DNA from: Acidobacteriota bacterium
Lineage (GTDB): Bacteria > Acidobacteriota > UBA6911 > RPQK01
Direction of reading: 5' to 3'
Length of the DNA stretch: 64,000 bases
Assembly (NCBI GenBank): GCA_041946865.1
Contig: JBHGBF010000028.1
Location: 4,257-68,256, forward strand
Part shown: positions 11,746 through 56,340 of the stretch, one piece after another
Position numbering within the stretch: position 1 is the stretch's first letter
Layout of the letters: the number at the start of each line of letters is the position of its first letter
The notes under the pieces: generated by a model
What the model was told of the DNA's origin: nothing
Seen by the model: only the letters and a program-made list of their open reading frames with translations
Database searches by the model: none
Translations under genes and position numbers: made by a program

Positions 11746-11825
11746 AAAGCGGGCGCCGCGGAGCCGCAAGCACAGCGCTTTTCAGCGGACCGTCAGCGGA
11801 CGGGGAGCGCGTCGGGTGCGTGCCG
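11746..11825 (-). repeat. GC-rich hairpin intergenic repeat, copy A (inverted relative to copy B)
   Basis: The reverse complement of this copy aligns with 61549..61623 at about 90% identity over ~75 nt (core 'CCGACGCGCTCCCCGTCCGCTGACGGTCCGCTGAAAAGCGCTGTGCTTGCGGCTCC'). It lies 62 nt upstream of the transaldolase start, in sense orientation. Confidence 0.55.
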
Positions 11826-11865
11826 TTAAGGAGTGCCCATTTCGAACGGTGCAGTGTCGAAGCCG

Positions 11866-15074: not shown

Positions 15075-15287
15075 GTAGTCGAAGGTCGGATCCTGGCCGG
15101 CCTGCGGTGTCGATGCTGTACCGGTCTGCAGAGTCGCCACGAGCAGCGGCGGATGAAAAATCATGATTGTTTCTCCGTTTTTCTACTTTCCATCACATCG
15201 GGGAGCGCAGCAACCTGCCTGCCTGTGCGTCGAGAGCACCAATCTGACCGGCGCCACAAGCAGGCAAGACACCCGCGCCCCCAGGGA

Positions 15288-28519: not shown

Positions 28520-28535
28520 TGGCACGCGCTTTGCT
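28520..28535 (+). promoter_or_regulatory. Sigma-54 (RpoN) promoter TGGCAC-N5-TTGCT upstream of the ECF sigma gene
   Basis: The sequence is an exact match to the -24/-12 consensus (TGGCACGcgctTTGCT). The GGAGG ribosome-binding site and ATG at 28564 follow about 30 nt downstream. Confidence 0.55.
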
Positions 28536-38838: not shown

Positions 38839-39579
38839 GTGCTCGCTATCATGCGTGTTTCGCTATTTGTGACCTGTCTGATCGACCAGCTCTACCCACA
38901 GGTCGGAATCAGTGCGGTGAAAGTTCTCAGGAAGCTTGGAGTGTCGGTCGATTTCGACCGGCGTCAGACCTGCTGCGGGCAGCCGGCCTTCAACACGGGT
39001 TACACCGAGGAGGCACGGCACGTGGCGCGGCACATGTTGGCCATCTATTCCGGACACGACCAGCCGATTGTCGTTCCATCCGGCTCATGTGCCGGCATGG
39101 TCAAGGTTTTCGTCCCGACTCTTTTTGCCGAAGGGACTCGCGAGCGGACGGCTGCCGACCAACTCGCCGCACGCATCTACGAGTTCTCGGACTTTGTCGT
39201 TTCCGTGCTTGGCCGTGAAAAGACCGGCGCCAGGTTTCCCGAGCCGGTGACGTACCATGACTCCTGCCACTTGCTTCGCGAATTGCACATCTTTGAGCAG
39301 CCCCGAAGGCTGATCCGGCACGTCGAAGGAATCGACTTCCGGGAAATGGAAAGCTCCACCCGGTGCTGCGGCTTCGGCGGAACTTTCGCCGTCAAATTCC
39401 CAGAAGTATCCACCGCCATGGGCGAGGACAAGATCCGGTGGATTCAAAACAGCGGGGCCCGCTATGTGATCGGTAACGACGTCAGCTGTCTGATGCATTT
39501 GGACGGGTTGCTCAGACGCAGGAGCATTCCGGTCAAGACCCTGCACCTGGCTGAACTGCTGGCGAAATTCAATGATTGA
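38839..39579 (+). CDS. lutA: Lactate utilisation protein A ((Fe-S)-binding CCG-domain protein)
   Basis: The protein has 'VSLFVTCLIDQLYPQVG' and two cysteine-rich CCG domains. It is 246 aa. Confidence 0.85.
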   Translation: MLAIMRVSLFVTCLIDQLYPQVGISAVKVLRKLGVSVDFDRRQTCCGQPAFNTGYTEEARHVARHMLAIYSGHDQPIVVPSGSCAGMVKVFVPTLFAEGTRERTAADQLAARIYEFSDFVVSVLGREKTGARFPEPVTYHDSCHLLRELHIFEQPRRLIRHVEGIDFREMESSTRCCGFGGTFAVKFPEVSTAMGEDKIRWIQNSGARYVIGNDVSCLMHLDGLLRRRSIPVKTLHLAELLAKFND

Positions 39580-41793: not shown

Positions 41794-43509
41794 TTATGGC
41801 TTAAGGTCTTTTACTGCGCTTGACGACAACACCGTCTTCGGGATCGGCAGAGAAAGCATCTCGGACAGGCTCTGAGAATGAGAGACTGCCTCCCGGCACA
41901 GCAGCAGTTGCTGATCGCTTAGCCGGTCCCTTCTCGTAAAAAGCACTATGACGTCGCGATTGCGATACTCGTCCAACCCTTCAAAAACGCGAGTCAGACA
42001 GAAGCTCGCCCGGAAATCCGTTTGTTGAAGCAGTTCGGGATACAGGAGACTGGGTTCCCCCTCCCGTTCCACAACGGCCGCCAGCCAATGAGTCACCCCG
42101 CGGCGCCGAAGGTAACTCCATTCCAGAGGGTGACGCGCCAGGTAGTGGTCGTTGAGTCCCATAACGTCGACCACTTCGCGATCGGCATAGTACGGTATTT
42201 GCCCGGCTTGGTCGACTGCCAGCACAGCGTTTGCGGGGAGGTTCTCTTTGACCCATTTCCCGAGCACGAAAAGCGGCGTAGCGTGGCGCGCAGTCAGGGT
42301 TTGACGCACTCGCTCCATGCTCAGGAGAGGGAGCGTGCCGTAGAAGAGGGGATTTTGAAAGAACTGAGTGATTGGTTGGAAGGCGAGAAGAACAACAGCC
42401 AGAACCGGACTCCAGATTCGTCCCGGCCAGATGGTCTTCGCGCCCGCGAAATTCGGAAGTGGTTGCCCGACAACCACCATCAGGATTGGGACAACAGAGA
42501 GCACATTAATCAAACACCAGGTTACCTGGAAGAATCTGAATAGTGGCCAGAAATCACCGCCCACACTGGCTACAAAAACGAGGTTCGAGGCCATGACGAG
42601 ACCCACCAGGGAGAGCGCCCTGTAGGAAAGGTTTTTGAGCCAGATAAATCCGGCCAGGGCAAAGAGCATTTCCACCCCCAGTCTCTCCCGAAAGAATTGG
42701 CCGCTGTAACGAAGGCCGGTTTTCAATATTCCCACCCAGCTCCTGATATCCCCGTCGGCCCGGAGCGCAACCTTCGCGTAGAACGTATTCGGCAGCCACT
42801 CGCCATACAGAAAATGGCGCAGCAGCAGGAAACCAGTGAAGAGCAAAAAGAAGGGCAGAAGCCAATTCAACAATAGCCTTCGAAACAAAAGCTTCCGGAG
42901 TGTCACAAGCAAGAACAATCCCGCAACGCCCGCGTACAGGATCCCCTCCGGTCGGGTCAGCGCGACGGCAAGCCAGAGCAACATGTTCAGCAACTGGTTG
43001 CACGACCGAGGTTCCTGATCGGTCCTGAGCGTGTGCCACAAGCCGGCCAGAACGAGCGCCGTGAAGCTGACCGTCTCCATCCCGCTCTTGGTATAAACAA
43101 GAACCGAGGGGTTCAGAGCCACGAGCAAAGCAGCAAGCCCGGTCACCCATACCGGCGCGGCTTTTCCGGCCTTGCCGGTGATTTCTCGAAGGAGTTTTGC
43201 GCTAAAGAGACCCAGAGCAACCGCCGAAAAGAAGGACGCCAGCTTGATCCAGAGGAAGACCGAACCAGGCAGCCAGTAGAAACCGGCCGTGAGCAGCGTC
43301 CACAAAGGGTTCGAAAAGCCCTCCACGCGCGAATAACCGGAGACCGCCTGCTGCTGAAGAGTGAGAAAAAACGGACCGACCCCTCGCGCCAGGTTGCGCG
43401 CGTAGAGCATGCCTATAAACGAATCATCCCACAAGTCGTTGTTTCCGAACAGAAACTGGAGCCCAGCGAACAGGACGACCAGAATCGACACGTAAGCGGC
43501 GCGACGCAT
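41794..43509 (-). CDS. Polytopic membrane protein, glycosyltransferase-like (GT39/GT83/ArnT-PMT superfamily, tentative)
   Basis: The 571-aa protein has at least 12 TM segments and N-terminal loop motifs reminiscent of lipid-linked-sugar transferases. No stronger assignment is possible by eye. Confidence 0.45.
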   Translation of the reverse strand: MRRAAYVSILVVLFAGLQFLFGNNDLWDDSFIGMLYARNLARGVGPFFLTLQQQAVSGYSRVEGFSNPLWTLLTAGFYWLPGSVFLWIKLASFFSAVALGLFSAKLLREITGKAGKAAPVWVTGLAALLVALNPSVLVYTKSGMETVSFTALVLAGLWHTLRTDQEPRSCNQLLNMLLWLAVALTRPEGILYAGVAGLFLLVTLRKLLFRRLLLNWLLPFFLLFTGFLLLRHFLYGEWLPNTFYAKVALRADGDIRSWVGILKTGLRYSGQFFRERLGVEMLFALAGFIWLKNLSYRALSLVGLVMASNLVFVASVGGDFWPLFRFFQVTWCLINVLSVVPILMVVVGQPLPNFAGAKTIWPGRIWSPVLAVVLLAFQPITQFFQNPLFYGTLPLLSMERVRQTLTARHATPLFVLGKWVKENLPANAVLAVDQAGQIPYYADREVVDVMGLNDHYLARHPLEWSYLRRRGVTHWLAAVVEREGEPSLLYPELLQQTDFRASFCLTRVFEGLDEYRNRDVIVLFTRRDRLSDQQLLLCREAVSHSQSLSEMLSLPIPKTVLSSSAVKDLKP

Positions 43510-43575: not shown

Positions 43576-45210
43576 TCAGCTGGCTTGCTCCGCTACCTTG
43601 ATCAGCTGCCTGGCGGGAACGTTTCGCAAGGTTTGTTTACGGCCGGACGGCCAGACAACCTCCACTTCGTCGGCGTGGCTTCTGGGTCCAAGACCGAAAG
43701 TCAGTCGAAGCTGGGATTGGCTGCAATAGCTGGCGCCACTCTTCACCGTCTGAACCTGGCGCAGCGGCCCGGCCTTGACTCGGACCACCGCGCCGACCCC
43801 ATCGCGGTTGCTCGGGCTTCCTTTCAGTTCAAAGGCGACCCAGTTATTCCGGCTGCCGCCCTCGTTACGGAAAAGGGCCGCGGGGCCTCCAGACGTTGTG
43901 ATCAGGACGTCCAGGTCCCCGTCATTGTCGATGTCGCCATAGGCGGCGCCCCGGCCTACTCGAGGCGCGCTGAAATCCTTGCCCATGAGGTCGGTTACAT
44001 GCGCAAACCGGCCCCGGCCTTTGTTCTCAAACAGGTGGGGCGGCTGCGCATAGGTCACCCGCTTCTGGACGCGGTTGATATCGTTCTCGACGTGGCCGTT
44101 GGCGACATATATATCCGGCCGCCCGTCGAGGTTGTAGTCGAAAAAGAAACATCCAAACGCAAGCGTGAGGAGACTTGCGGGACCGAGGGCCGAACGAGGC
44201 GCCTCGTCAATAAAAAACCCGGTGCCCTCGTTATGGTAAAGAGCCAGCATCTGGTTGGAGAAGTTGCCGATTACGACGCTCAGATGGCCTGAGCCGTCAT
44301 AGTCGGCAGCATCGATTCCCATCGCGCCGCGCGCCACTCCGTCCTCGCTGAACGCCACCCCCGCCATCACTCCGACCTCGGCGAAGGTCCCGTCGTGCTT
44401 GTTTTCCCACAGTTTGTTCGGCTGGGTGTCGTTGGCCTGGAGGACGTCGGGCCACCCGTCCCAGTTGTAATCAAAGACCAGAACTCCGAGCCCCTTGTTT
44501 GTCTCGTCAAAGAGCTTCGCCTCCTTGGTCACATCCTTGAAGCGTCCACGGCCGAGGTTTTTGTAGAGTCGAGGTGACACACCCGGGTACGATTCGGGCG
44601 TGCAATAGGACTTGGATTCACCGTCCAAGGTGCAGAAAAGGTCGCTTTCGCGACCCCACTTCACGTAATTGGCCACAAACAGGTCGAGCTGCCCGTCGCG
44701 GTTGTAATCCAGCCAGGCTGCGCTGCTGCCGAAGTCCGGATTCCCCAAACCCGCCGCCCGGGTCACGTCATGAAAAACACCGTTGCCCTGGTTCTGAAAC
44801 AGGCGATCAGCCCCGAGAGCGGTCACGTAGATATCCTGATCACCGTCGTTGTCGTAATCGGCGATGGCACATCCCATCCCATACATCTCGACGGCAAGAC
44901 CCGCCGGTCTGGTCACGTCAGTGAAAGTTCCGTTCTTGTTGTTCCGATAAAGACTGGAATAGCTGATTTTCTTCTTCCGTTCCGGCCAGTCGCTCCCGTT
45001 CACCAGGAAGATGTCGAGCCAGCCGTCGTTGTTGTAGTCGAGGAAGGCACAGCCGGCGCCCATCGTCTCGGGCAGGTACTTCTTTCCGTAAGCTCCGTTA
45101 TTGTGAACGAAATTAATGCCTGCCTGGCGGGTTACGTTGGTAAAACGCACCTGCGCGGCGACCGGGACCAGGAAGCCCGTCAGCAGCCAAATCCAGAGAA
45201 GTCGCTTCAT
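43576..45210 (-). CDS. CRTAC1 family protein (FG-GAP/VCBS repeats + ASPIC/UnbV C-terminal domain), secreted
   Basis: The signal peptide 'MKRLLWIWLLTGFLVPVAAQ' is followed by repeated 'DYNNDGWLD / DYDNDGDQD / DYNRDGQLD' calcium-binding FG-GAP loops, and the C-terminal 'WPSGRKQTL' region is ASPIC-like. Confidence 0.8.
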   Translation of the reverse strand: MKRLLWIWLLTGFLVPVAAQVRFTNVTRQAGINFVHNNGAYGKKYLPETMGAGCAFLDYNNDGWLDIFLVNGSDWPERKKKISYSSLYRNNKNGTFTDVTRPAGLAVEMYGMGCAIADYDNDGDQDIYVTALGADRLFQNQGNGVFHDVTRAAGLGNPDFGSSAAWLDYNRDGQLDLFVANYVKWGRESDLFCTLDGESKSYCTPESYPGVSPRLYKNLGRGRFKDVTKEAKLFDETNKGLGVLVFDYNWDGWPDVLQANDTQPNKLWENKHDGTFAEVGVMAGVAFSEDGVARGAMGIDAADYDGSGHLSVVIGNFSNQMLALYHNEGTGFFIDEAPRSALGPASLLTLAFGCFFFDYNLDGRPDIYVANGHVENDINRVQKRVTYAQPPHLFENKGRGRFAHVTDLMGKDFSAPRVGRGAAYGDIDNDGDLDVLITTSGGPAALFRNEGGSRNNWVAFELKGSPSNRDGVGAVVRVKAGPLRQVQTVKSGASYCSQSQLRLTFGLGPRSHADEVEVVWPSGRKQTLRNVPARQLIKVAEQAS

Positions 45211-48028
45211 AGTTTTTCAGTCGTGAGACATCCGCGAGCGTTTCCAGCCGTACGCTCGAATGCTCGTGAATGGCCTGTCGCTCATTGTTGTTTTCGGGAT
45301 GCGCCAGTCGATGCGGTCCGGTGATGGCCTGCGAGCTTTCATCGGCCTTGAACCGCAGGTACAGCTTCTGTTCGCGCTCCGCCAGCGCCCGGTTGCCCAT
45401 TCCCCGATAAGCCAGCATCAGGTTGTAATGAGCCTGCAGGTCCTCGGGATCGATCCGCAAAACACGATTCAGCACTTCCACCGCTTCCTTGAACTGGCGC
45501 TTCAAGAACAGGATCCGGCCGATCTGGTTCAATACCATGCGGTCCTGGGGGTACTTCGACTCCGCTTTCCACAGATGTTCCAGGGCTTTTTCATAATTCC
45601 CCTGCGTCTTGTACGTCATGCCAAGGAAGAAATGGGTTTTGGCCAGTTCGGGATCAAGCCTGAGTGCATCCAGCAGGACTTCCTGGGCCTCCTGGGTCCG
45701 GCCTTCCTGAGCACGGACGCGGCCGATATTCACATAGCCGTCGACATACTTCGGATTGATTTGCACAACCCGTTTGAAAATCTCCTCCGCCGCCTTCAAA
45801 TCGCCCTGCAGTAACAGACCAATCCCATAATCGTTCCAGCGGATCAGGTCTTTCGGGTTGAGCACCGCCTCTTGGTGGGAAACGTCCGTGCCGGCGGGAA
45901 CGACTTTCAGCTGAGCCGTGGTTTCCGCCATGACGACAATGGGGAGATCCGGAATCTCCTTGAGCTTTCCCGAAACCTTGGAAAGGTCCCCGGTGAAGAC
46001 CCATTTCCCATCGTCATATCCGGGAGCGATCGAGACCGCAACCTGGCTCGGATCCCGCACCCCGGCATAGGCCCATTGCGTATTCCACCACGCGAATTTG
46101 CGGTAATTGACCTTGGCTTTGAGCGTGATTGTCCCGCCGGCATCCCCGGGAATCTTGAGTCGATAATGCACGGTGTCGGCGGCCCCAGGCGGGATCAGCC
46201 GCACGTACAAAACCGACCGCGCCATCCAGGCGTTGCGTTTGTTGATGTGATTGCCGTTTGCGTCGAGCAGGAAGGAGCGGTAAAAATGAGCGGAGGGCTC
46301 GACCGGCCCCTTGCGTCCTGACTCGTCTTCGGGCACGTAGCCGCTCCAGAAGATGGTTTTCCCGCGCTCGTCGACCGCCTGCAGCTCCACCCAGACATCG
46401 AATCCGTCGACTGTCCCGCCCGGGAAGAAGTGGCCGACGTTTTTCGTCCTCACGACGACATCCACACGGACGTCATCCCCGGCCTGTACCAGGGGGTTGA
46501 CGCGGTTTACCGGCGCCAGGATCTTTGCCGCTTCCGTATACCCGGCTCCGACGCCGACCGCGAAGCCCATCTGGTCGCCTTCCGCAAATGTGCTGGAGAT
46601 CTGCGGCTCGTCCGCACTTGCCGCCCGGCGCCCGGCAGACTCCTCCCCGACAACTTCCCCCGCCTCGCTGACCGCGAAAATATCCACCCCGACCTGGTCG
46701 CTTTTCAGAAACTTGATCACCGTCTCGAGCTGCTCGTGATCTTTGTTGGCAAAGGGGAGAGCCGTGTTGGCGGCCGGGAAGCGGTGGCTGTGTACGAATC
46801 CATTGAGGTTGCCGGCATCGTTCGAGGCGACCAGCGGCATATGACAATCGGCGCATTTCTTCGACTGTTTCGGGTAGTAGAACGAACGTGCGGAATGCCC
46901 CGAAATCCCGCTGTTCTGCCAGGCGTCATAGTCATTGAAACCCCTGGTCCACCGGTAATTGTTGACCGGAATATCCAGATGCACCTTGTGACAGCTCGAG
47001 CAGTAATCGGGAGTCTGGCTCCGGAAAAACGGCTTCAGGAACGTCCGGCGATGCGGGCCGGGATCGAGCCGGACCACAAAATCGTGGACCCCCTTGATCA
47101 GCCGGTTCTCGCTGGTCGCCAGATCGTGGAGCGGCGGGTATTCAATCACGAAATGCCCGTTACCCATCGTGCTCCCTACCGACACGATCGAGTGGCACGA
47201 CGTACACGTCAAACCGGCCTGCGCCTCGGGCGTGTGGATCTGGTCCTTGATTGGTCGATCCATCATGCCGTTGAAGAAAACCGCATGATCGTGACAGCCG
47301 CCGCACCACTTGGACGGCTTGGTTCCCACCACGTCCTGCATGTATTCGATCGATTTCCGGTACCACTGGTTGTTGAAAGAGGAGAAGTGATGCGCGCTCG
47401 AGGCCCATTGCCTGTAAATGTCGGGGTGACATCCCTTGCTGGCGCACGACTCCGGCTTCATGAAAAACGCCGACGGAATCGTCCGGTTCACGTCGGTATT
47501 GGCCGAAGAGGGGAAAAACGGGCTCTCCGCCCCCGCGCCTTCCTCTTCCATTCGAACCGGAACCGCCGTCGGATTGACGATCTCCCAGCTGGGATTCGGG
47601 TAGTAACGGTACCAGGTCTGAACACCCAGCGGCAGCGCCAGCCCGATAACCAGCGCCGCCACCAGGAGCGCCCGGCTCCGGCCCGAGATGAGACTGGCCA
47701 TCACAAAGAGCACGAATCCGCTGCCGACAACCACGATATGAGCCAGGAGGAGCCAGTAGTATGGACGGGTCGCGCCCGTTATGACCAGCGCTGTGCCGAG
47801 CAGCCCGCCGGCGATCATCAGGATGACCGCCAGCCGGCTTAACCAGGAGGCCTGTCGAAGCGAACCGCGCAAAAAAGCGACCAGGCCCACCAGGACCAGC
47901 GCCCCCAGCCCCAAGTGCAACAGGAGATTCGCGACGTAGAAAAGCGTCGGTGAATCAAAACTGTACAGGTAAGCGCTGTTGATCACCAGCAGAGCCAGGG
48001 CAGCCGACAGCCGACGAGTCATAGGCAT
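45113..48028 (-). CDS. Membrane-anchored multihaem cytochrome c (c554-like haem block) fused to a C-terminal TPR domain
   Basis: The N-terminus has five predicted TM helices. A periplasmic block follows with CGGCH, CTSCH, CSSCH, CADCH and an atypical CASKGCH (CX4CH). The C-terminal ~250 aa are TPR repeats. The start was taken at the Met 'MPMTRRLSAAL' (ORF maximum 48067, TTG). The 3' end overlaps the CRTAC1 start by 98 nt. Confidence 0.75.
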   Translation of the reverse strand: MPMTRRLSAALALLVINSAYLYSFDSPTLFYVANLLLHLGLGALVLVGLVAFLRGSLRQASWLSRLAVILMIAGGLLGTALVITGATRPYYWLLLAHIVVVGSGFVLFVMASLISGRSRALLVAALVIGLALPLGVQTWYRYYPNPSWEIVNPTAVPVRMEEEGAGAESPFFPSSANTDVNRTIPSAFFMKPESCASKGCHPDIYRQWASSAHHFSSFNNQWYRKSIEYMQDVVGTKPSKWCGGCHDHAVFFNGMMDRPIKDQIHTPEAQAGLTCTSCHSIVSVGSTMGNGHFVIEYPPLHDLATSENRLIKGVHDFVVRLDPGPHRRTFLKPFFRSQTPDYCSSCHKVHLDIPVNNYRWTRGFNDYDAWQNSGISGHSARSFYYPKQSKKCADCHMPLVASNDAGNLNGFVHSHRFPAANTALPFANKDHEQLETVIKFLKSDQVGVDIFAVSEAGEVVGEESAGRRAASADEPQISSTFAEGDQMGFAVGVGAGYTEAAKILAPVNRVNPLVQAGDDVRVDVVVRTKNVGHFFPGGTVDGFDVWVELQAVDERGKTIFWSGYVPEDESGRKGPVEPSAHFYRSFLLDANGNHINKRNAWMARSVLYVRLIPPGAADTVHYRLKIPGDAGGTITLKAKVNYRKFAWWNTQWAYAGVRDPSQVAVSIAPGYDDGKWVFTGDLSKVSGKLKEIPDLPIVVMAETTAQLKVVPAGTDVSHQEAVLNPKDLIRWNDYGIGLLLQGDLKAAEEIFKRVVQINPKYVDGYVNIGRVRAQEGRTQEAQEVLLDALRLDPELAKTHFFLGMTYKTQGNYEKALEHLWKAESKYPQDRMVLNQIGRILFLKRQFKEAVEVLNRVLRIDPEDLQAHYNLMLAYRGMGNRALAEREQKLYLRFKADESSQAITGPHRLAHPENNNERQAIHEHSSVRLETLADVSRLKNYEATSLDLAADGLPGPGRRAGAFYQRNPPGRH

Positions 48029-48144
48029 ACTCTTCTCACGATCACCTCGGGATCGCCAACCGGTCAATCATCCATCGTCTTGGCCTGGGATGCCTCAAGA
48101 TAGGGGGCCGCAACGATCGCTCGTGGCGGGATACTTTTTGTAGA

Positions 48145-48160
48145 GCAAACTCCGTGCCGA
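48145..48160 (-). promoter_or_regulatory. Candidate sigma-54 promoter (minus strand CGGCAC-N5-TTGCT) upstream of the cytochrome-TPR/CRTAC1 genes
   Basis: The reverse complement of 48140..48164 reads cacttcGGCACggagtTTGCtctac. The GG and GC dinucleotides are correctly spaced, with one mismatch to TGGCAC. It lies about 100 nt upstream of the cytochrome start. Confidence 0.4.
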
Positions 48161-48371
48161 AGTGTGTGACATCATCATAACCCACGATCCGCCTTCAAGT
48201 TAAGCAGACTGCAACAAGAAATGACCCGGGAAACGTGTATTTACATGTCTGGTTGTTCATCATTTATATGCACCTATTTTGAAACACACGCCGGCGAGTT
48301 ACGCGCCGGAGAGAACGGGGGCGGTCAGGTTGTCAAGGCTGCCCGCTTAGTGGTATCTTCTCATATATTTT

Positions 48372-50006
48372 ATGAATGGCCTCCGCGAGCGGCTGAAGAA
48401 GGACACTTCGAGCCTGAAGATTACCGTGGTGCTTTTTGCGGTCCTGCTCGCGATTAACTGCGCGGCGGTCTGGTTCATCCTGGTCTCACGCCGCAATGTT
48501 CAGCAAATCGCGGCCCAGGACTTGCAGCTGCAAACGACTGCCCAGGCGCGCTCGATCGAAGCCTTGCTGGCGAATTTGCGAGGCGAGTTTCTTTTCCTGT
48601 CGCAGTCGGCCCCACAGTCGACGGCCGTAACGGTCCTCTCCGACCCGAACCCGCTCGTGAAGCGCTGGGGCCGGCTGGATGTGGAAGGCATTTTCCTCCG
48701 CTTTCTCCAAGCCCGCCCGGAAGTCTTACGGCTGATCCTGCGTGACGGCGCAGGCAAGCCGCTTATCGTGGCGGGGCGCCGGGAGGGCGCTCCTGTGCTT
48801 CTGCCCCCTGGGGATTTCACCCAGGCGGCGACCAGCGGCGGCAACGTGTGGGCCAGCCAGTGGCCGATTGCGGCGGGCCCGCCGGAAAACGGCATCTTGG
48901 AGACGTTGCTGGACGTCTCGGAGCTGCTTTCCGTCGTGGCGCCGGGCAGCGAGTCCAAGCTGAAAATCGTTCAGGAACGCCGGCCGCTCGTTCGACCGCC
49001 CTCCGACGACTCGCTGGTGGCCTCGGTGCCGATTCGAGACGAACACTGGACCACCCCCATACACTGGACCTTGATTCGGACCGAGAATCAAAGCCAGCTG
49101 GTCTCGTCGGTCGCCAACCTGGCGGCGCATTACCGGGCGACGATTATCCTCAACCTTTTGGTCATAAGCCTGACGCTGGTCCTGGGCGCTCTGGCGTTCC
49201 GGCAGGTTCGACGCTCGGCGATTCTTGAGGCAGAGAATCGGCATCAGGCCAGGGTCCGGGAGCTGGAACGCCAAATGCTCCATACGGAGCGGCTGGCGAG
49301 CGTCGGTCGACTGGCAGCCGGCCTGGCCCATGAGATCAACAATCCGCTGGAGGGCATCGGGAACTATCTGAGCCTCTTGGAGGAAGACCTGAAGGACGGA
49401 CGGGCAGAGGGCTGTCTGGAGCTGACCGCAGGCGTCCGAGAGGGGCTCAATCGTGCGGCGGGGATCACGCGCCAGGTTCTGGCTCTCTCCGACCCGGGCA
49501 GAAGCCCCAAAACGGCAATGAGCATGAACGCCGTGGCCAGGGAGACCTTCGATTTTGTCAGGTCTAATCCGGCTTTTCGGCACGTCCGCATGGAGCTGCG
49601 TGTTCCCGATGATGACCTGATCATTCTCGGGAACGCGATTACCCTGGGCCAGGTCGTCTTGAATCTGATCCTCAACGCCTGTGAGTATCAGGAGCAGGGA
49701 GGCCAGGTCGAGGTGGTGTTGGACCGCGTGGACGCCAAGGCGCGCTTGAGGGTGAGCGATCGGGGGCCTGGCATTCCCGAAGACGCATTACCAAGGATTT
49801 TTGAGCCCTTCTTTTCGACCCGAGGCTCGACGGGACTCGGGCTGTCGCTTTGCCATTCGATCGTGACCGACCATGCCGGGCAGGTGACGGCCGCCAACCG
49901 CGGCGATGGGCAGGGCGCGGTCTTCACGGTGGAAATCCCGCTAAGCGAACCGCGAGCCGCCGACACCGAGCCTGCTGGGGTCAAGGAGAAGGAACTGACA
50001 GGCTGA
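48372..50006 (+). CDS. Sensor histidine kinase (two TM segments, periplasmic sensor, HisKA, HATPase_c)
   Basis: The 544-aa protein has the H-box 'GLAHEINNPLEGI' and G-boxes 'DRGPGIPED' and 'GSTGLGLSL'. A TTGTCA-N18-TATCTT sigma-70-like promoter lies just upstream. Confidence 0.85.
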   Translation: MNGLRERLKKDTSSLKITVVLFAVLLAINCAAVWFILVSRRNVQQIAAQDLQLQTTAQARSIEALLANLRGEFLFLSQSAPQSTAVTVLSDPNPLVKRWGRLDVEGIFLRFLQARPEVLRLILRDGAGKPLIVAGRREGAPVLLPPGDFTQAATSGGNVWASQWPIAAGPPENGILETLLDVSELLSVVAPGSESKLKIVQERRPLVRPPSDDSLVASVPIRDEHWTTPIHWTLIRTENQSQLVSSVANLAAHYRATIILNLLVISLTLVLGALAFRQVRRSAILEAENRHQARVRELERQMLHTERLASVGRLAAGLAHEINNPLEGIGNYLSLLEEDLKDGRAEGCLELTAGVREGLNRAAGITRQVLALSDPGRSPKTAMSMNAVARETFDFVRSNPAFRHVRMELRVPDDDLIILGNAITLGQVVLNLILNACEYQEQGGQVEVVLDRVDAKARLRVSDRGPGIPEDALPRIFEPFFSTRGSTGLGLSLCHSIVTDHAGQVTAANRGDGQGAVFTVEIPLSEPRAADTEPAGVKEKELTG

Positions 50007-50121
50007 GAACTGGGAGCCGGAGGGCATCCAACCTGCCGCTGGTCCGCCGGCCAAACGCCGGCGTTTTTCCGAACGGAGCAGGCCAATGATGTCCCTTCCT
50101 CCCGGCATTTGAAAGGTCTAC

Positions 50122-51516
50122 ATGAGCGCAAGGACGAACACCAAGGGCACGGTCTTGATCGTGGATGACGAAACCTACGTACGGGACTCCCTGGCCACGG
50201 TGATGAGACGCAAAGGGTACATGGTGCGAACTGCACCGGGCGCGGAGCAGCTCATCGCCTCAGGAGCGCTGCAAGGGGTCGACGTGGTCGTCACCGATCT
50301 TCGCATGCCGGGGCAGGACGGGCTTACCTTCCTGCGTTCTCTTGCGGAAACCGAGTCGACGATTCCCGTCATCGTCCTCACGGGCCACGGCACTGTTCCC
50401 TCGGCGGTCGAGTGCATGAAAGCCGGCGCCTTCGATTACCTGCTCAAGCCTTCGACCCCCGACGAGCTGGACCTGGTCATCGACCGGGCGATCAACCAGA
50501 CGACAATGAAACGGGAGCTTGAGTACTTCCGTTCCGCCGACGCCCGGAAGCCTGGACCGTCAGGGCCCGTCGGCGTGAGCGCCGGCTGGAAGCAGGTGTT
50601 ACGGCTGGTTGAAGCGGCGGCGCCGGCGGACACGACGGTGCTTCTCCTCGGCGAGTCGGGAACCGGAAAGGGCGAAGCGGCTCGTCTGGTTCATCAATGC
50701 AGCCGCCGCAACAAGAAGCCGTTCGTTCGTGTGAACTGCGCCGCCATCCCGATCGATCTTTTCGAGAGCGAATTTTTCGGGCACCGGCGGGGATCTTTTA
50801 CGGGGGCGACGGCCGATCGCGAAGGACGTTTTCGAGTCGCGCACCAGGGGACGCTGTTCATGGACGAGATCACCTCCATGCCGGCAGCCGCGCAGGCCAA
50901 GGTGCTCCGGGTGCTGGAGGACGGAGTCTTTGAACGGGTGGGAGACAGCAATCCCACGACCGTCGACGTCCGGCTGGTGGCCGCCTGCAACGTGGACCTG
51001 CAGGCCGAAGTGGATGCCGGACGGTTTCGCCAGGACCTGTTTTACCGCATAAATGTCATGACCATTCATATCCCTCCACTGCGGGAACGCAGGGAGGATA
51101 TCCCGGTCCTGGCCCAGAGTTTTCTCGATGAGTTCCGCGCGAGACTGGCACGGCCTGTGCATTCTTTCGATCCCGAAACCATGAAGATCCTCGAAGCGTA
51201 CCACTGGCCGGGCAACATTCGCGAGTTGCGCAATGTAATCGAGCGCGCCGTTCTTCTGGAGACCGGCCCCGAGCTGATGCCCGATAGCCTGCCCTTCGGG
51301 TTCCAGCAGGAAGGACGTTCCCCGGGTGCGCATCCGCCTGAAGATCTCAACCTTCGAAGTGCCCTGGCGGCCGAGGAGTGCCGGATACTGAAAGCGGCGC
51401 TGGCGCGGTCGAACGGGGTTCGCCGTGAAGCGGCCCGCCTGCTGGGAATTGACGAACGGAATCTCTCCTACTTCCTCAAGAAGCATGGACTGAGCGGAAC
51501 GGGAGGGCGCGCATGA
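50122..51516 (+). CDS. Sigma-54-dependent response regulator (NtrC family) with C-terminal Fis-type HTH
   Basis: The protein has a receiver domain ('VVVTDLRMPG'), AAA+ motifs ('GESGTGKG', 'GSFTGA', 'ESEFFGH') and the HTH 'AARLLGIDERNLSYFLKKHGL'. Confidence 0.9.
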   Translation: MSARTNTKGTVLIVDDETYVRDSLATVMRRKGYMVRTAPGAEQLIASGALQGVDVVVTDLRMPGQDGLTFLRSLAETESTIPVIVLTGHGTVPSAVECMKAGAFDYLLKPSTPDELDLVIDRAINQTTMKRELEYFRSADARKPGPSGPVGVSAGWKQVLRLVEAAAPADTTVLLLGESGTGKGEAARLVHQCSRRNKKPFVRVNCAAIPIDLFESEFFGHRRGSFTGATADREGRFRVAHQGTLFMDEITSMPAAAQAKVLRVLEDGVFERVGDSNPTTVDVRLVAACNVDLQAEVDAGRFRQDLFYRINVMTIHIPPLRERREDIPVLAQSFLDEFRARLARPVHSFDPETMKILEAYHWPGNIRELRNVIERAVLLETGPELMPDSLPFGFQQEGRSPGAHPPEDLNLRSALAAEECRILKAALARSNGVRREAARLLGIDERNLSYFLKKHGLSGTGGRA

Positions 51517-53351
51517 GGCGCGTCTTCTTCCAGGAGAGCGCAGGGATCCTGCCTGCGCGGGTATCCTGCCTGCTGCTTCTGGTCCCGGCCCTCTTCCTCG
51601 CCGGCTGTCAAAGCCAACCCGAACCCTCAAAGCCGGGAGAGAGGGCCGGCAGCAGGCCGGAACAAGCGAGAGACGAGGTTCAGAAGCCGCAAGCGGCGCC
51701 GCCTGCGGCCCCGGGCAGAGCCGAAGTCTCTACTCCCAAGGCGCCGGCGTCCCCGCCGGCCGGCGCTTTCCTTTTCACCGACATGACGGCGTACTCGGGG
51801 ATTGTCTTCACGCATTTCAACGACGCGACACCCCGCAAGTATCTTCCCGAGACCATGGGCGCCGGGGTCGCCCTCCTGGATTACGACAACGACGGCCTCG
51901 TCGATATTTACCTGGTCAACGGCGCCAGACTGAAACCTCCCCGGGATGTCCCCGGCGCACCGACCGGGGCGCTGTACCGGAATCTGGGCAACTGGAAGTT
52001 CCAGGCCGTTACGGCGCAGGCGGGCCTGGACCAGCCCATGTTCGGGATGGGCATCGCCGTCGGCGACTATGACAACGACGGCTTCACCGATCTCTTTATC
52101 AACGGCGTGGATGGCGATCGCCTTTACCGGAATGCGGGGAACGGCACTTTCGAGGATGTGAGCGAGCGCGTCGGGCTGAACGATTCCGGCTTCGGTTCGA
52201 GCGCCGCTTTCCTTGACTATGATCGCGACGGCTACCTGGACCTCTTTGTCGGCCGTTACGTCGAATGGACACGCGAGACCGACATTACCTGCAGCCCGGA
52301 CGGCGTCCACCGGGTGTACTGCACGCCGGAGGCGTATCACGGCGAGAGCAACCGGCTTTACAGGAATATGGGGGGCCGCCGTTTCAAGGATGTCACCCGC
52401 TCCTCGGGGATCTGGCAGCAGGACGGCAAGACGCTCGGCGTCGCCATCATGGATCATAACCATGACGGCTGGCCGGACATTGCAGTCGCCAACGACACCG
52501 TTCGCAATTTCCTGTTCGTGAACAACCGGGACGGCACCTTTACCGAAAGCGGGGTCGCGACCGGAATGGCGTACAGCGAGTCCGGCGCCACGCGAGGCGG
52601 AATGGGTATCGACGCGGGTGATGCCGACGGAGACGGCTTCACGGACATCGTCGTAGGGAACTTCTCCCAGGAAATGAGCGCCCTTTACCGTGGGTCGGCA
52701 GCGGGCTTTTTCGTCGATGACGCGCCGCAGGCGGGAATCGGCCTGCCCACGCTTATGACCCTGGCTTTTGGAACCCTTTTCTTCGACTACGACAACGACG
52801 GCCTGCTGGACCTGCTGATTGCCAACGGCCACATTGAGCCCGAGATCAACAAGACGCAACGGCTCCAGCAGTACGCTCAGCCTCCCCAGCTTTTCAGGAA
52901 CGAGGGCGACGGCAATTTCAGGCAGATGACCGACAGTGCGGGCAGCCCGCTCAGAGAGCCGCTGGTCGGCCGGGGCCTGGCTTCGGGTGACCTGGATGGT
53001 GACGGCGACCTCGACATTGTCATTACACAGAACGGGCATCGGGCCAAGGTCTGGCGGAACAACGCGAGGCGCCAATCCTGGCTTCGGGTCCAGTTGTGCG
53101 GCAATCGAAGCAACCGAACCGGCTACGGGGCAGTCATCAAGGCGGTTGCCGGGAAGAAGACCTGGGTGCGAATGTTCAGCTCAGGACGCTCGTATCTCTC
53201 GGCGTGCGAACCCATAACGAGCATCGGGCTCGGCTCGGTCACCGCGCTGGACCGGCTCGAAATCACCTGGCCTTCCGGCCAGGTCCAGACGATACAGCGC
53301 CCGCCGCTGAACCAGCTTTTGAAGGTGAAAGAAGCTCCGGCAGCCACCTGA
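51513..53351 (+). CDS. CRTAC1 family lipoprotein (FG-GAP repeats + ASPIC/UnbV domain)
   Basis: The lipobox 'LFLAGCQSQ' is followed by a Pro/Ala-rich linker, then repeated 'DYDNDGxxD' FG-GAP loops and a C-terminal 'ITWPSGQVQT' ASPIC-like domain. It overlaps the regulator stop by 4 nt and is co-transcribed with it. Confidence 0.8.
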   Translation: MRRVFFQESAGILPARVSCLLLLVPALFLAGCQSQPEPSKPGERAGSRPEQARDEVQKPQAAPPAAPGRAEVSTPKAPASPPAGAFLFTDMTAYSGIVFTHFNDATPRKYLPETMGAGVALLDYDNDGLVDIYLVNGARLKPPRDVPGAPTGALYRNLGNWKFQAVTAQAGLDQPMFGMGIAVGDYDNDGFTDLFINGVDGDRLYRNAGNGTFEDVSERVGLNDSGFGSSAAFLDYDRDGYLDLFVGRYVEWTRETDITCSPDGVHRVYCTPEAYHGESNRLYRNMGGRRFKDVTRSSGIWQQDGKTLGVAIMDHNHDGWPDIAVANDTVRNFLFVNNRDGTFTESGVATGMAYSESGATRGGMGIDAGDADGDGFTDIVVGNFSQEMSALYRGSAAGFFVDDAPQAGIGLPTLMTLAFGTLFFDYDNDGLLDLLIANGHIEPEINKTQRLQQYAQPPQLFRNEGDGNFRQMTDSAGSPLREPLVGRGLASGDLDGDGDLDIVITQNGHRAKVWRNNARRQSWLRVQLCGNRSNRTGYGAVIKAVAGKKTWVRMFSSGRSYLSACEPITSIGLGSVTALDRLEITWPSGQVQTIQRPPLNQLLKVKEAPAAT

Positions 53352-53373
53352 AACGTCATCTGGAGGAACAAGC

Positions 53374-54123
53374 ATGCCCGTCTACGTCGGCGCCTCCGGC
53401 TGGCAATACAAGGACTGGTCCCGAACTTTCTATCCGCCCGGCACGGGATCGTTGCTTGAGTACTACTCGGCCAGGTTCAGAACCGTCGAGATCAATGCCA
53501 CCTTCTACCGCCTGCCTGAGAAGCCCGTGTTCGAGAAATGGGACGCCGAGGCTTCCGGAGACTTCCGGTTTGCGGTCAAGGCCAGCCGCTTCCTTACTCA
53601 CATGAAAAAGCTCAAAGATCCCGAGGAACCTGTCGCCCGACTGCTCGAACGGTGCGCGGGACTGAAGCGCAAGCTGGCCGTGATTCTCGTGCAACTCCCT
53701 GGCAACTTCCCGCGACATGACGAGCGCCTGGAGGCCACACTGGCTGCTTTCCCGAAAAACATGCGGATTGCGGTCGAATTCCGGCACGAATCGTGGTTCT
53801 CCGACGAAGTCAAGAACCTGCTCAGCCGGTACAAGGCCGCGCTCTGTCTCGCTGATCGCGGCGGCCGGCTTCTTACGCCTTGCTGGAAGACGTGCGACTG
53901 GGGCTATCTTCGAATGCATCAAGGAGAACAGCGACCGCTTCCCTGCTATAACGCTTCGACTCTGAAGGAGCGCGCCCGGATGCTTGCCGGCTTGTGGAAG
54001 CCCCGCCAGGACATCTTTGTCTATTTCAACAACGATACCGGCGGCTGCGCCATTCGGGACGCGGTGGCTTTTGCCCGGGCAGCCGAGGAGGCAGGCCTCT
54101 CCCCGACCCGCGCGCTCCTGTAG
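53374..54123 (+). CDS. DUF72 (YecE-like) family protein
   Basis: The N-terminus 'VYVGASGWQYKDWSRTFYP' and the 'SARFRTVEINATFYR' region are hallmark DUF72 sequences. Confidence 0.85.
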   Translation: MPVYVGASGWQYKDWSRTFYPPGTGSLLEYYSARFRTVEINATFYRLPEKPVFEKWDAEASGDFRFAVKASRFLTHMKKLKDPEEPVARLLERCAGLKRKLAVILVQLPGNFPRHDERLEATLAAFPKNMRIAVEFRHESWFSDEVKNLLSRYKAALCLADRGGRLLTPCWKTCDWGYLRMHQGEQRPLPCYNASTLKERARMLAGLWKPRQDIFVYFNNDTGGCAIRDAVAFARAAEEAGLSPTRALL

Positions 54124-54335: not shown

Positions 54336-56273
54336 TCAACTTTCCGGCGTAAGCTCGGCCATCAACCTTTCCCACTCCTGGTAGAGGGCGGCGAGATCGG
54401 TGTCCAGTCTCTCGTGCTCCTCCGAAAGCTCGTGCAGGCGGGTGAAGTCGTCGTAGCCCTCCTGCAGCTCGGCGACAACCTTCTGCTGAGCAGCTTCCAA
54501 ATCGGCGATCCGGGTCTCGATTTCATGGAGCCGGCGCTCGCGGCGCAGGCGCTCGTTCTTGGAGAGTCCTGGGGCAGGCCTGGAAGGCGTGGCTTCGCGA
54601 AAAGGCGGCTCAGCGTCTCGGCCTTGCTCCTCGACGGGCCGGCTTGGTTGAGGCGGCTCGCGCTCCTCGATCAGCCGCTGCAGCTCCTCAATGCTGTCGG
54701 CAGGGACCAGACGCCGATCCCGAATCAGAAGGAAGCGCTCCACGACGTTGCGCAGGAAGTAAAGGTCGTGAGAAATGACGATCAGTGTTCCCTCGTAGCT
54801 GCCGAGCGCCTCTTCCAGAGCCTCTCGACTCTGAATATCGAGGTGGTTGGTCGGCTCGTCCAGAAGCAGGACATTCGAGGGATGGAAGAACAAGCGGGCC
54901 AGGGCCAGCCTGCTCTGTTCGCCACCACTCAGCCGGGAGACCTTCTTGAAGACGTCATCTTCCTGAAACAGGAACCTGGCGGCCAGGTTCCGGATCTCGA
55001 GGTCCGTGCAGGCTGAATCGAGTTCTCGCAAGCGGTCATAAACCGTCGCGTTCGGGTCTTCGATGGTTTGAGACTGCGCGAAATAGGCCGGGTAGTTGTT
55101 GACACCCCAGTCCAGGTGCCCGCCGAGCAGCCTGACCTCGCCCAGGAGGCTCTTGAGGAGAGTGGTCTTGCCGGTCCCGTTTCCGCCCACAAAAGCCACG
55201 CGCTCGCCCCGGCGGACCGTCAGTTTAACGTCCTCTATAAGCGGCCGCCCCTGCTCGTAGCCGATGACGCCCTGCCGGATACGCAAGCTGTCGGATCCGC
55301 CGCGCCCCGCCTCGGCGATCTTCAGCTTGATTTCCCGGGTGTCGTGATGCGGCCGTTCCAGCCAATCCGTCCGCTCCAGCTGCTTCAGACGCGACTGGGC
55401 CTGTTTGGTCTTTTGCCCGGCCATGTTCCGCCGAATGTAGTCCTCGGTTTTCGCCTTCCATTCCTGCTGTTTTTCGTACTGTTTCAGCTCAAATGCGATC
55501 CGTTCCTGTTTCAGGGCTCGGGAGCGGGTAAAGCCGGCCGGGTAATCGAACAGCCGGCCGGCCTCAAGCTCCCAGGTTCTTTCGGTGACGCGGTCGAGGA
55601 AGAGCCGGTCGTGGCTGATGACGATAAACGAAGTCTTGACCTGGCGCAGATATTCGGTCAGCCAGATTATCCCTTGAATGTCCAGATGGTTGGTCGGCTC
55701 GTCGAGGAGGAGGAGGTCCGCGCCGCGCAGGAGCGCCTCCGACAGCAGGAGGCGGCTCTGTTGCCCGCCGCTCAGATGGCTGGTCGGCAGGTCCAGGGTT
55801 TCCTTGTCGAACCCGAGACCCAACAGGACAGCCTCGGTTCGCGCCGCATAGTCGTATCCGCCTTGAAGGCGGTAGCGATGTCTCAAAGACTCGTATTCCG
55901 CCGCCAGGCTGTCCGGCAGATGCCCGGAGATCTTCGCCATTTCCGCTTCCAGTTCGTGCATCCGCAGCTCCATGGAGTGCAGGTGATCGAAGACCCGAAG
56001 CGCCTCCTGGCGCACTGTCGGATCTCCACGGAACTCGGCGATCTGGGCGACCCGGGAGATGACCAATCCCGAAGCGCGATAAACCTGCCCGGCGTCCGGC
56101 GACTGTCGGCCTTCAATCAGCTCGATGAGCGTAGTTTTCCCGGTCCCGTTTCGGCCTATCAGCCCGATCCGGTCACCTGGGTTGCACTGCACGGACAGGT
56201 CGCGGAACAGCCAGTCGCCGCCAAATTCCCGTCCTACGGATTCAAGTCGGAATAGCATCGGTTGGCGATTCAT
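54336..56273 (-). CDS. ABC-F family ATPase (tandem ABC domains, no TMD; Uup/YheS/EttA-like)
   Basis: There are two Walker A motifs ('GRNGTGKTT', 'GGNGTGKTT'), two ABC signatures ('LSGGQQSR', 'LSGGEQSR') and an inter-domain linker. The start was trimmed to the Met 'MNRQPMLFRLES'. Confidence 0.85.
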   Translation of the reverse strand: MNRQPMLFRLESVGREFGGDWLFRDLSVQCNPGDRIGLIGRNGTGKTTLIELIEGRQSPDAGQVYRASGLVISRVAQIAEFRGDPTVRQEALRVFDHLHSMELRMHELEAEMAKISGHLPDSLAAEYESLRHRYRLQGGYDYAARTEAVLLGLGFDKETLDLPTSHLSGGQQSRLLLSEALLRGADLLLLDEPTNHLDIQGIIWLTEYLRQVKTSFIVISHDRLFLDRVTERTWELEAGRLFDYPAGFTRSRALKQERIAFELKQYEKQQEWKAKTEDYIRRNMAGQKTKQAQSRLKQLERTDWLERPHHDTREIKLKIAEAGRGGSDSLRIRQGVIGYEQGRPLIEDVKLTVRRGERVAFVGGNGTGKTTLLKSLLGEVRLLGGHLDWGVNNYPAYFAQSQTIEDPNATVYDRLRELDSACTDLEIRNLAARFLFQEDDVFKKVSRLSGGEQSRLALARLFFHPSNVLLLDEPTNHLDIQSREALEEALGSYEGTLIVISHDLYFLRNVVERFLLIRDRRLVPADSIEELQRLIEEREPPQPSRPVEEQGRDAEPPFREATPSRPAPGLSKNERLRRERRLHEIETRIADLEAAQQKVVAELQEGYDDFTRLHELSEEHERLDTDLAALYQEWERLMAELTPES

Positions 56274-56340
56274 CCATGCTATCCGTTTTGTTCGTCGGCC
56301 GCTTGATTCAAGGCCAACGGACAGCACGGATTGCGCGGAA

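Follow-up and report, generated by a model that had tools for sequence, protein, structure and literature searches.

The locus at positions 43576-54123 of the window, the 64,000-nt stretch of Acidobacteriota contig JBHGBF010000028.1 analysed here, brings together two conserved gene units. Unit A comprises cytTPR, which encodes an inner-membrane pentahaem cytochrome with an immunoglobulin-like (Ig-like) and a tetratricopeptide repeat (TPR) domain, and CRTAC1a, which encodes an exported FG-GAP/UnbV propeller. Unit B, on the opposite strand, comprises the genes for a sensor histidine kinase, an NtrC-class sigma-54 activator and CRTAC1b, a second propeller with a lipid anchor. The periplasmic core of cytTPR belongs to the pentahaem cytochrome fold of c552, which is shared with MccSep/ExtKL. 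We lean towards a reading in which the locus joins the two units into one envelope module, with a sigma-54 switch, an electron path through cytTPR and docking of a propeller on its TPR domain.

All seven genes named in the original prediction were found on the strands given there, by open reading frame listing and Pfam scans. The single seven-gene block that it described resolves, in comparative genomics, into two separable conserved units, while its proposal of a non-random, probably co-regulated extracytoplasmic module is upheld by linkage in related genomes. Each part of the locus falls in a known superfamily. The earlier statement that no function is described for any part was too strong, as the periplasmic core has the pentahaem fold of c552/MccSep.

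Conserved units and their juxtaposition

Relatives of cytTPR were detected in at least 571 species-level genomes, with one genome searched per GTDB species. The carriers are mainly classes of Acidobacteriota, with some metagenome-assembled genomes of Poribacteria, Binatia, Dormibacterota and Udaeobacter as minor ones. The best 80 loci were kept, and their neighbourhoods were called by tblastn with the window proteins, at least 50% identity being required of a CRTAC1a orthologue. Such an orthologue was observed directly downstream of cytTPR, on the same strand, in 64 of the 75 loci with enough sequence. A survey seeded with CRTAC1a (80 metagenome loci, at least 59% identity) placed cytTPR directly upstream in 65 of the 68 loci whose upstream sequence reached 1 kb or more, the neighbourhood that the original prediction had proposed to check. 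Taken together, both seeded surveys identify unit A as a tight, widespread operon, usually without a sigma-54 system.

The pair is followed by a third CRTAC1-like gene in 32 of 59 loci. In locus L003 this third gene (1212 residues) encodes a TPR region fused to an FG-GAP/UnbV propeller, and the TPR part shares about 30% identity with that of cytTPR (E ~1e-17); similar TPR matches were found at the third-gene position in many other loci. Because of this TPR-propeller fusion, there is a Rosetta-stone hint that the TPR domain of cytTPR works with a CRTAC1 propeller.

Some variation within and around unit A was also observed. In one clade, an AhpD/CMD-like gene lies between cytTPR and CRTAC1a (L049:12894-13478, plus strand, Pfam CMD 1.8e-8), with the same insertion in L037, L038, L045, L066, L074, L080, L081, L126, L141, L151 and L163. 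The L049 gene contains an in-frame TGA at the second position of its redox motif (C-F-Y-TGA-I-E-S-H), and its product may be a CxxU selenoprotein. In L001, a group II intron reverse-transcriptase gene (15132-16385; RVT_1 and GIIM) lies shortly downstream of CRTAC1a; L002, from a different sample, has an otherwise identical context without that intron gene.

The survey seeded with CRTAC1b yielded four orthologue contexts (L168-L171, 54-65% identity), and the kinase and sigma-54 activator genes directly precede CRTAC1b in all four, the other neighbourhood proposed for checking. This was always the case in the related genomes examined: all nine related loci studied have an intact unit B, with the kinase-activator-CRTAC1b order recorded in L084, L085, L086, L004, L168, L169, L170 and L171, and in eight of the nine it stands beside unit A. 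The activator and CRTAC1b genes overlap by 4 nt in L084-L086 and L168-L171, as in the window, where the ATGA overlap described originally was found and suggests translational coupling. Since unit B is intact in all four CRTAC1b contexts, even in L170 without unit A, it is a cassette in its own right. In L170 (complete genome CP070717.1), unit B occupies 4991-9731 and a di-haem CCP_MauG peroxidase gene lies 1.2 kb off (10891-12081).

The kinase has two transmembrane segments flanking a periplasmic domain of about 215 residues (residues ~38-255), followed by HisKA and HATPase_c. This sensor domain matched no Pfam or NCBIfam family, and the orthologues in L168-L171 are 44-66% identical over their full length. 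The activator was assigned by Pfam to Response_reg (5.9e-29), Sigma54_activat (1.9e-64) and HTH_8 (2e-8), and it contains D59, the Walker A motif GESGTGKG, LFMDEI and a GSFTGA variant of the GAFTGA motif. The pair falls short of the NCBIfam equivalogs AtoS (162 vs 646 bits), ZraS (145 vs 479), AtoC (434 vs 714) and ZraR (355 vs 760).

The DUF72 gene, counted as a locus member in the original prediction, is present in L084, L086 and L168 and absent at this position in L085, L004, L169, L170 and L171. It was therefore rejected as a core part, although it is probably co-transcribed with CRTAC1b in the window. In L168, a sigma-54-like site matching 11/12 positions (CGGCACGGCGCTTGCT, 10727-10742, plus strand) begins 28 nt upstream of the DUF72 gene, and a 10/12 site (11651-11666, plus strand) immediately precedes the adjacent PRC-barrel gene. 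The DUF72 and PRC-barrel genes may belong to the same sigma-54 regulon in genomes in which CRTAC1b is not co-transcribed with them.

The full arrangement of the window is kept in L084, L085 and L086, in which the cytTPR products are 87%, 85% and 71% identical over their full length. L004 (cytTPR 68%) contains the kinase, activator, CRTAC1b and cytTPR genes without CRTAC1a, and L013 (58%) has the divergent kinase and activator genes. Among the CRTAC1b-seeded contexts, unit A is divergent from unit B in L168 and in L171, where the cytochrome is just 30% identical, and convergent in L169, at a distance of 1.6 kb. Because unit B recurs beside unit A in different arrangements, a functional and not merely inherited linkage is favoured.

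A second type of regulator was found in L049, L066, L074, L080 and L081. These loci contain a one-strand operon in the order HisKA_3 kinase, NarL/GerE regulator, CRTAC1x, cytTPR, AhpD/CMD-like gene and CRTAC1a (upstream part at L049:6162-9809, plus strand). The start of CRTAC1x is overlapped by the stop of the NarL regulator gene, and its product has an RRDFL twin-arginine (Tat) signal, a signal that also occurs in the form MKRRDFIRQ. Two unrelated two-component systems, each with its own CRTAC1 paralogue, are thus attached to the same cytochrome-propeller pair. Tat signals are more typical of cofactor-bearing or pre-folded proteins, and the one on the CRTAC1x propeller hints at cytoplasmic folding or a bound cofactor.

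The cytochrome and its propellers

Thousands of full-length relatives of cytTPR were found; the best 120 are at least 57% identical and nearly all from Acidobacteriota, and they carry only the name 'tetratricopeptide repeat protein'. The AlphaFold2 model based on 85 homologues (predicted local distance difference test, pLDDT, 78.9; predicted template modelling score, pTM, 0.80) contains the five transmembrane helices of the original prediction, at residues 2-23, 29-56, 62-84, 88-115 and 119-142 (pLDDT 85-96). This five-helix anchor stands in place of a signal peptide, and cytTPR is not a soluble periplasmic protein; from the positive N-terminus and the five helices, the remainder of the chain is placed in the periplasm. 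The invariant residues of the anchor in the 85 sequences (N17, Y20, Y31, N34, H38, G42, G85 and H97) all lie in its periplasmic half. His38, in helix 2, and His97, in helix 4, both lie nine residues from the periplasmic end of their helix, where a quinol site or one haem b close to the periplasmic surface would fit. The anchor matched no Pfam or NCBIfam family, and among 1.84 billion representative proteins searched it occurs only before the same kind of multihaem domain, with or without TPR.

The five haem motifs (C195x4CH, C242xxCH, C275xxCH, C343xxCH and C392xxCH) are at invariant sites in the 85 homologues and contain all ten Cys of the protein. Nine further His are invariant, seven in the haem domain and two in the Ig-like domain. 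Motif 1 (residues 195-201, 47426-47446, minus strand) has the form CX4CH in the window's clade (CASKGCH, CATSGCH and CGRSGCH among others) and CXXCH in other clades (CARCH, CKRCH, CQRCH), a clade-specific insertion of two residues. A CcmI/CycH-like maturation role for the TPR domain (TPR_CcmH_CycH, 27.9 bits vs a cut-off of 42) was set aside because cytTPR is in its own right a cytochrome with five haems and none of the ten related loci for which gene and Pfam tables were made has ccm genes next to it.

The whole-chain Foldseek search against the PDB returned TPR proteins only, so the core (residues 145-725) was re-modelled. With this model, a single strong match was obtained, the c552 of Thermochromatium tepidum (PDB 5ZE8, E 1.3e-7). 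A profile of the core from 23 genomes gave the same protein as its sole significant match among PDB sequences (5ze8, E 2.6e-5), a weak match mainly over haems 1-3, and the Geobacter MccSep (9wt8) weakly, at E 0.011. As in these proteins, a helical haem cap is followed by an Ig-like beta-sandwich stem in cytTPR, and the sandwich loop HFFPGGT aligns with HAMPTGA of c552 in a weak HMMER segment. Searched alone, the Ig-like region matched no PDB sequence, and His533 could not be aligned to Sec325 of MccSep. NCBIfam gave a faint ExtKL match. Concerning the 'Cytochrom_c554' label used earlier, a Pfam match exists (Cytochrome_C554, PF13435, 27-29 bits vs a cut-off of 20.8), with no single stretch significant in the full-length scan. 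It appears to be a weak, generic multihaem match, and the best structure-search match of the core is c552, not c554.

The proposed pentahaem cytochrome (PHC) family comprises ExtKL, Gsu2801 and the cable-bacteria sPHC/lPHC, all built from a pentahaem and an Ig-like domain, with c552 as a structural homologue (PMC11976967). The c552 protein, top structural match of cytTPR by two methods, shares with it the five c-haem motifs, the helical cap preceding an Ig-like sandwich and a His-x-x-Pro-x-Gly loop in that sandwich, although sequence identity is only 14-17%. Whereas c552 and the other PHC proteins are described as periplasmic cytochromes, cytTPR is more than twice as long, owing to its family-specific five-helix anchor, its TPR domain and its conserved tail. 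MccSep/ExtKL of Geobacter is a polysulfide reductase whose active site consists of a His/Cys-ligated haem 2 and a selenocysteine (Sec) on an Ig-like loop, and its family is defined by the haem-ligating Cys239 and by Sec/Cys325 (bioRxiv 10.1101/2025.11.18.688581). MccSep (9WT8) has the same pentahaem cap and Ig-like stem as cytTPR, but its ligated haem 2 and loop Sec/Cys are both absent from cytTPR, which shares the fold and falls outside this definition because it has no spare Cys and no in-frame TGA. Furthermore, MccSep is a soluble tetramer with neither TPR nor CRTAC1 partner.

Both propellers combine FG-GAP_3 repeats (1e-49 to 1e-52) with a C-terminal UnbV_ASPIC domain (1e-16 to 1e-20), are 50% identical to each other and contain repeated Dx[DN]xDG loops of the Ca-binding type (DYNNDGWLD, DYDNDGDQD, DIDNDGDLD), which are predicted Ca sites. 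As originally described, CRTAC1a is secreted, with the Sec signal peptide MKRLLWIWLLTGFLVPVAAQ, and its gene is overlapped by the cytochrome reading frame, by 98 nt across the CRTAC1a start. CRTAC1b is indeed a lipoprotein (lipobox FLAG-C32), with the lipid anchor at Cys32 and a Pro/Ala/Glu-rich tether before the propeller. A neighbour-joining tree separated three clades: CRTAC1a, CRTAC1b (lipoproteins with Pro/Ala-rich tethers) and CRTAC1x. CRTAC1a matches human CRTAC1 (9etn_A) at E 3e-20. The exported human CRTAC1 (9ETN) and UnbV, the 'E4' of enediyne cassettes, share with the locus propellers the FG-GAP/VCBS propeller, the UnbV_ASPIC domain and the Ca-type loops. The animal CRTAC1 has an EGF domain, which the locus propellers lack. 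Some CRTAC1b homologues carry the JGI label 'enediyne biosynthesis protein E4', and no enediyne polyketide synthase is found nearby here. Unlike those of the known CRTAC1/UnbV proteins, the genes of the locus propellers are accompanied by genes for a multihaem cytochrome or a two-component system.

Published clusters resembling those of hydrazine synthase (HZS-like) in Planctomycetota, Syntrophobacter and Paludibaculum also embed CRTAC1-family genes among haem-protein genes (PMC12758564). As at the locus, a CRTAC1-family FG-GAP gene lies there between genes for periplasmic c-haem proteins, some of the cytochrome c554 type; unlike it, they encode a hydrazine-synthase-like propeller and haem subunits, and neither a TPR cytochrome nor a two-component system is reported. 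Because of these clusters, a general association of CRTAC1 with c-type haem proteins is suggested. In the searchable literature (UnbV, 'CRTAC1 family protein', FG-GAP combined with multihaem and TPR), no work on the function of the bacterial proteins was found, in line with the original description of them as uncharacterised. No paper was found on the five-transmembrane/pentahaem/Ig/TPR architecture, on the near-obligate pairing of cytTPR and CRTAC1 orthologues or on two-component cassettes carrying their own CRTAC1 paralogue, and no published function was found for the cytTPR-CRTAC1a pair.

Table 1. Features of the locus, with window coordinates, and candidate sigma-54 elements of the window and related loci
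Feature	Residues	Position	Strand	Description
CRTAC1a (CRTAC1 #1)		43576-45210	-	FG-GAP_3 x7, 2.8e-49; UnbV_ASPIC 2.5e-20; unit A gene 2
cytTPR		45113-48028	-	971 aa, inner-membrane pentahaem cytochrome + Ig-like + TPR + conserved tail; unit A gene 1
cytTPR invariant tail	N914-N915-E916-R917...H921-E922-H923	45260-45289	-	Invariant columns
cytTPR TPR domain	725-909	45302-45856	-	About five repeats; Pfam TPR, Foldseek TPR matches
cytTPR Ig-like beta-sandwich	446-710	45899-46693	-	Invariant loop G532-H533-x-F535-P536-G537-G538-T539
cytTPR helical pentahaem domain	187-445	46694-47470	-	Haem motifs C195, C242, C275, C343, C392
cytTPR five-helix membrane anchor	1-142	47603-48028	-	AlphaFold2 model and invariant columns
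Candidate sigma-54 -24/-12 promoter		48145-48158	-	cGGCACGgagtTTGCt, ~115 nt upstream of the cytTPR ATG
Conserved upstream blocks		48234-48271	-	CATA-N6/7-TATG palindrome and TGTAAA, 75-125 nt upstream of the -24 box
Sigma-70-like promoter		48330-48359	+	TTGTCA-18-TATCTT, extended TG; ends 13 nt before the kinase ATG; consensus match only
Sensor histidine kinase		48372-50006	+	HisKA + HATPase_c
NtrC-class activator		50122-51516	+	Receiver + sigma-54 AAA+ (GESGTGKG, GSFTGA) + HTH_8
CRTAC1b (CRTAC1 #2)		51513-53351	+	Lipoprotein, FG-GAP propeller + UnbV_ASPIC
DUF72 gene		53374-54123	+	Pfam 3.3e-62; 22 nt past CRTAC1b
Sigma-54 element, window and L084				GGCACGGAGTTTGC
Sigma-54 element, L085				GGCGCCGAGTTTGC
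Sigma-54 element, L086				GGCACGGGAGTTGC
Sigma-54 element, L004				TGGCATGTTCTTTGCA
Sigma-54 element, L013				TGGATCTTGAGTTGCT

Control region, proposed working and competing explanations

The control region between the two units measures 343 bp and not 305 bp as first given, because the homologues start at ATG 48028 (MPMTRR...) and not at TTG 48067. It is AT-richer, as described, with a GC content of 0.51 against 0.606 for the window. The candidate sigma-54 promoter of the original prediction is present, oriented towards cytTPR and conserved in related loci; the case for it rests on position, orientation and conservation, since the motif count alone is not significant. A GG-N10-GC element occurs at the same place and in the same orientation in the window, L084, L085, L086, L004 and L013, which are all the survey loci with a divergent system (Table 1), and L168 contains a 10/12 match. 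Outside this element and a few blocks, the window's intergenic region can hardly be aligned with those of L086, L004 and L013. Fisher tests comparing loci with and without the divergent system gave p=3.5e-5 (score at least 9) and 2.8e-4 (score at least 10), values that are uncorrected for the relatedness of the loci. A general sigma-54 dependence of cytTPR genes was rejected, since sites are no commoner than in control sequence where the system is not adjacent.

Upstream of the promoter, the palindrome CATA-N6/7-TATG (48255-48271) lies 110-125 nt from the -24 box, and columns C132-A135 and A142-G144 are invariant in a six-locus intergenic alignment that is otherwise poorly conserved. Apart from the promoter element, the palindrome is the sole invariant feature of that alignment. 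The upstream blocks are reasonable candidates for activator-binding sites. On the other side, the sigma-70-like block before the kinase gene is conserved in L084 and L085. A leader RNA in the 5' untranslated region of cytTPR was dropped as a candidate, folding no better than shuffled sequence (z +0.52), and the Rfam scan of the whole window gave 0 family matches.

The layout and its logic resemble those of known systems. In ZraPSR of Enterobacteria, a sigma-54 kinase/activator pair is divergent from a sigma-54-driven gene for a periplasmic protein, and the exported protein belongs to the cassette. The locus has the same divergent regulatory layout, and ZraS and ZraR are among the best NCBIfam matches; its sensor domain, however, is unrelated, and in place of a Zn chaperone its presumed target genes encode a cytochrome and a propeller. 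In TorS/TorT/TorR with torCAD, a two-component system with a periplasmic binding protein controls the adjacent operon of a membrane pentahaem cytochrome. The control logic for an anchored pentahaem cytochrome with a periplasmic partner is the same as that proposed here, but the parts show no homology. TorC is a NapC/NirT-family protein with one transmembrane helix, its partner TorA is a molybdoenzyme, and the regulator is of the OmpR type and sigma-70 dependent.

In the proposed working, the anchor of cytTPR would place the pentahaem, Ig-like and TPR domains in the periplasm, with the soluble, Ca-binding CRTAC1a exported alongside. The 215-residue domain of the kinase would sense an extracytoplasmic cue, possibly with the CRTAC1b lipoprotein as co-sensor, and the kinase would phosphorylate the activator. 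The activator could then bind the conserved upstream blocks and open the sigma-54 promoter at 48145-48158, driving cytTPR and CRTAC1a. The cytochrome would exchange electrons, in one direction or the other, between the quinone pool and its five c-haems; His38 and His97, the invariant pair on the periplasmic side, could make up a quinol site or serve as ligands of a haem b. The TPR domain would hold a CRTAC1 propeller, which would bind a substrate or partner. A redox function for the propellers themselves is something we only infer, and a cytTPR-CRTAC1 redox module is plausible on these grounds. A more far-reaching version, which we regard as tentative and rather doubtful, would make the CRTAC1 propellers the substrate-binding or catalytic partners of an unrecognised class of membrane pentahaem quinol/quinone oxidoreductases, with the tethered paralogue as a ligand sensor for the sigma-54 or NarL-type two-component regulator. 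In this version the TPR domain would dock the propeller and cytTPR would connect it electronically to the respiratory chain, making a new periplasmic redox enzyme system that would be widespread in soil Acidobacteriota.

Several observations weigh against the proposal of one module working in this way. Regarding linkage, a divergent kinase gene stands beside cytTPR in only 5 of 70 loci of the cytTPR-seeded survey, and no kinase or activator gene beside CRTAC1a in any of the 80 CRTAC1a-seeded loci. L170 has no cytTPR within 8 kb, so unit B can stand alone, and the cytochrome of unit A occurs without an adjacent CRTAC1 gene in L087 and several Poribacteria loci. Regarding regulation, the bare sigma-54 pattern has two matches in the window where 0.72 are expected, a number also reached by 11 of 100 shuffles; L171 has no site of at least 10/12; and the relatedness left in the Fisher tests counts in the same direction. 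A terminator-like hairpin of 7 G-C pairs followed by TTTTT (50045-50063, plus strand), in the 115-nt gap between the kinase and activator genes, complicates the single-operon picture. It is not conserved in L086 and L004, as the gap is 26 nt in the former and the genes overlap in the latter, and in this lineage it may dampen read-through or determine the ratio of kinase to activator. Regarding the electron path, the re-modelled core is only moderately confident (pLDDT 67), and no family or structural match stands behind the haem-b/quinol role of His38 and His97 beyond conservation and helix position. To our knowledge, CRTAC1/UnbV propellers have no recognised cofactor or catalytic site.

A first alternative, which we consider unlikely, is that the haems are neither respiratory nor catalytic, the cytochrome being a redox-sensing or stabilising accessory for Ca-binding adhesin or matrix propellers. 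CRTAC1 proteins are Ca-binding, integrin-like propellers without a known cofactor, with DxDxDG-type loops visible in both paralogues; TPR domains are docking modules; and, as far as the title of its PDB structure tells, c552 has no known enzymatic role. A cytochrome-propeller partnership also has a precedent in TfcP/PilY1: in Myxococcus, TfcP is reported to be a non-canonical cytochrome that stimulates Ca binding by the propeller protein PilY1 (PMC8833165). However, five strictly conserved haem sites, nine further invariant His and a dedicated, conserved anchor with invariant His on its periplasmic side together suggest a real electron path to the membrane, and some CRTAC1 paralogues of the module carry Tat signals.

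It is somewhat less probable again that the two units are independent and have become neighbours through inherited synteny, the two-component system regulating itself or other genes. Most unit A loci indeed lack a neighbouring two-component system; in L170, unit B occurs in the absence of unit A, with an 11/12 sigma-54-like site facing a divergent RidA-family gene; and shared ancestry accounts for part of the conservation, the window being closely related to L084 and L085. Yet the juxtaposition outlasts divergence of the cytochrome down to 58% identity in L013 and 30% in L171, and it has survived rearrangement, being mostly divergent and convergent in L169. The sigma-54 promoter faces cytTPR in all six divergent loci despite barely alignable intergenic regions, and the other clade has recruited a different two-component system to the same module. 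These points argue for the joint module over independent units.

That cytTPR is a sulfur or polysulfide reductase like MccSep/ExtKL, or serves extracellular electron transfer like Geobacter Ext and Cbc/ImcH, is highly improbable: the pentahaem-cap and Ig-like-stem fold is common to MccSep (a likeness drawn through c552), the ExtKL match of NCBIfam is faint, and a membrane anchor with a multihaem domain resembles the inner-membrane quinol oxidoreductases of metal reducers, but all Cys of cytTPR lie in its haem motifs and its gene lacks an in-frame TGA, no porin or outer-membrane cytochrome gene stands beside the pair in the ten tabulated loci, and the carriers are, by name, mainly Vicinamibacteria, Blastocatellia, Terriglobia and Poribacteria, whereas those of MccSep are Desulfobacterota and Nitrospirota.

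Flanks and significance

A gene for a 571-residue polytopic membrane protein (41794-43509, minus strand) lies 66 nt downstream of CRTAC1a and has no Pfam or NCBIfam match. It was rejected as part of the module, as no related locus has a counterpart beside the module. The gene appears to have been inserted, in this lineage, between the module and the lutB region; the latter is syntenic in L086. The flanks are otherwise of housekeeping type (39572-40978, plus strand; 54336-57714, minus strand), encoding a LutB/LldF lactate-oxidation Fe-S protein, an ABC-F ATPase and an oxidase resembling cytokinin dehydrogenases that use flavin adenine dinucleotide (FAD). L084, L085 and L168 retain the ABC-F and FAD-oxidase genes in synteny. 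The window contains a second kinase/sigma-54 activator pair (29256-31315, minus strand), with 39% and 29% identity to the pair studied here, and the only other match to GGCAC-N5-TTGC in the window (GGCACGCGCTTTGC, 28521-28534, plus strand) is found about 0.7 kb past that pair.

In soil, Acidobacteriota rank with the most abundant bacteria, and their cultivation is difficult (PMC3174227). Many CRTAC1/UnbV genes in their genomes have no assigned role, and the two units described here provide the first firm genomic anchors for this family: members of one orthologous group nearly always follow a membrane pentahaem-TPR cytochrome gene directly, and those of a second always accompany the genes of a sigma-54 two-component system. 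The c552/MccSep pentahaem fold is extended to a membrane-anchored branch, free of the Cys/Sec site and found mostly in soil-type Acidobacteriota. The locus yields a testable model comprising a regulator, a promoter, a membrane electron carrier and a propeller. Should the haems indeed link the quinone pool and the propeller, the module would represent a periplasmic redox system that is both new and very common.

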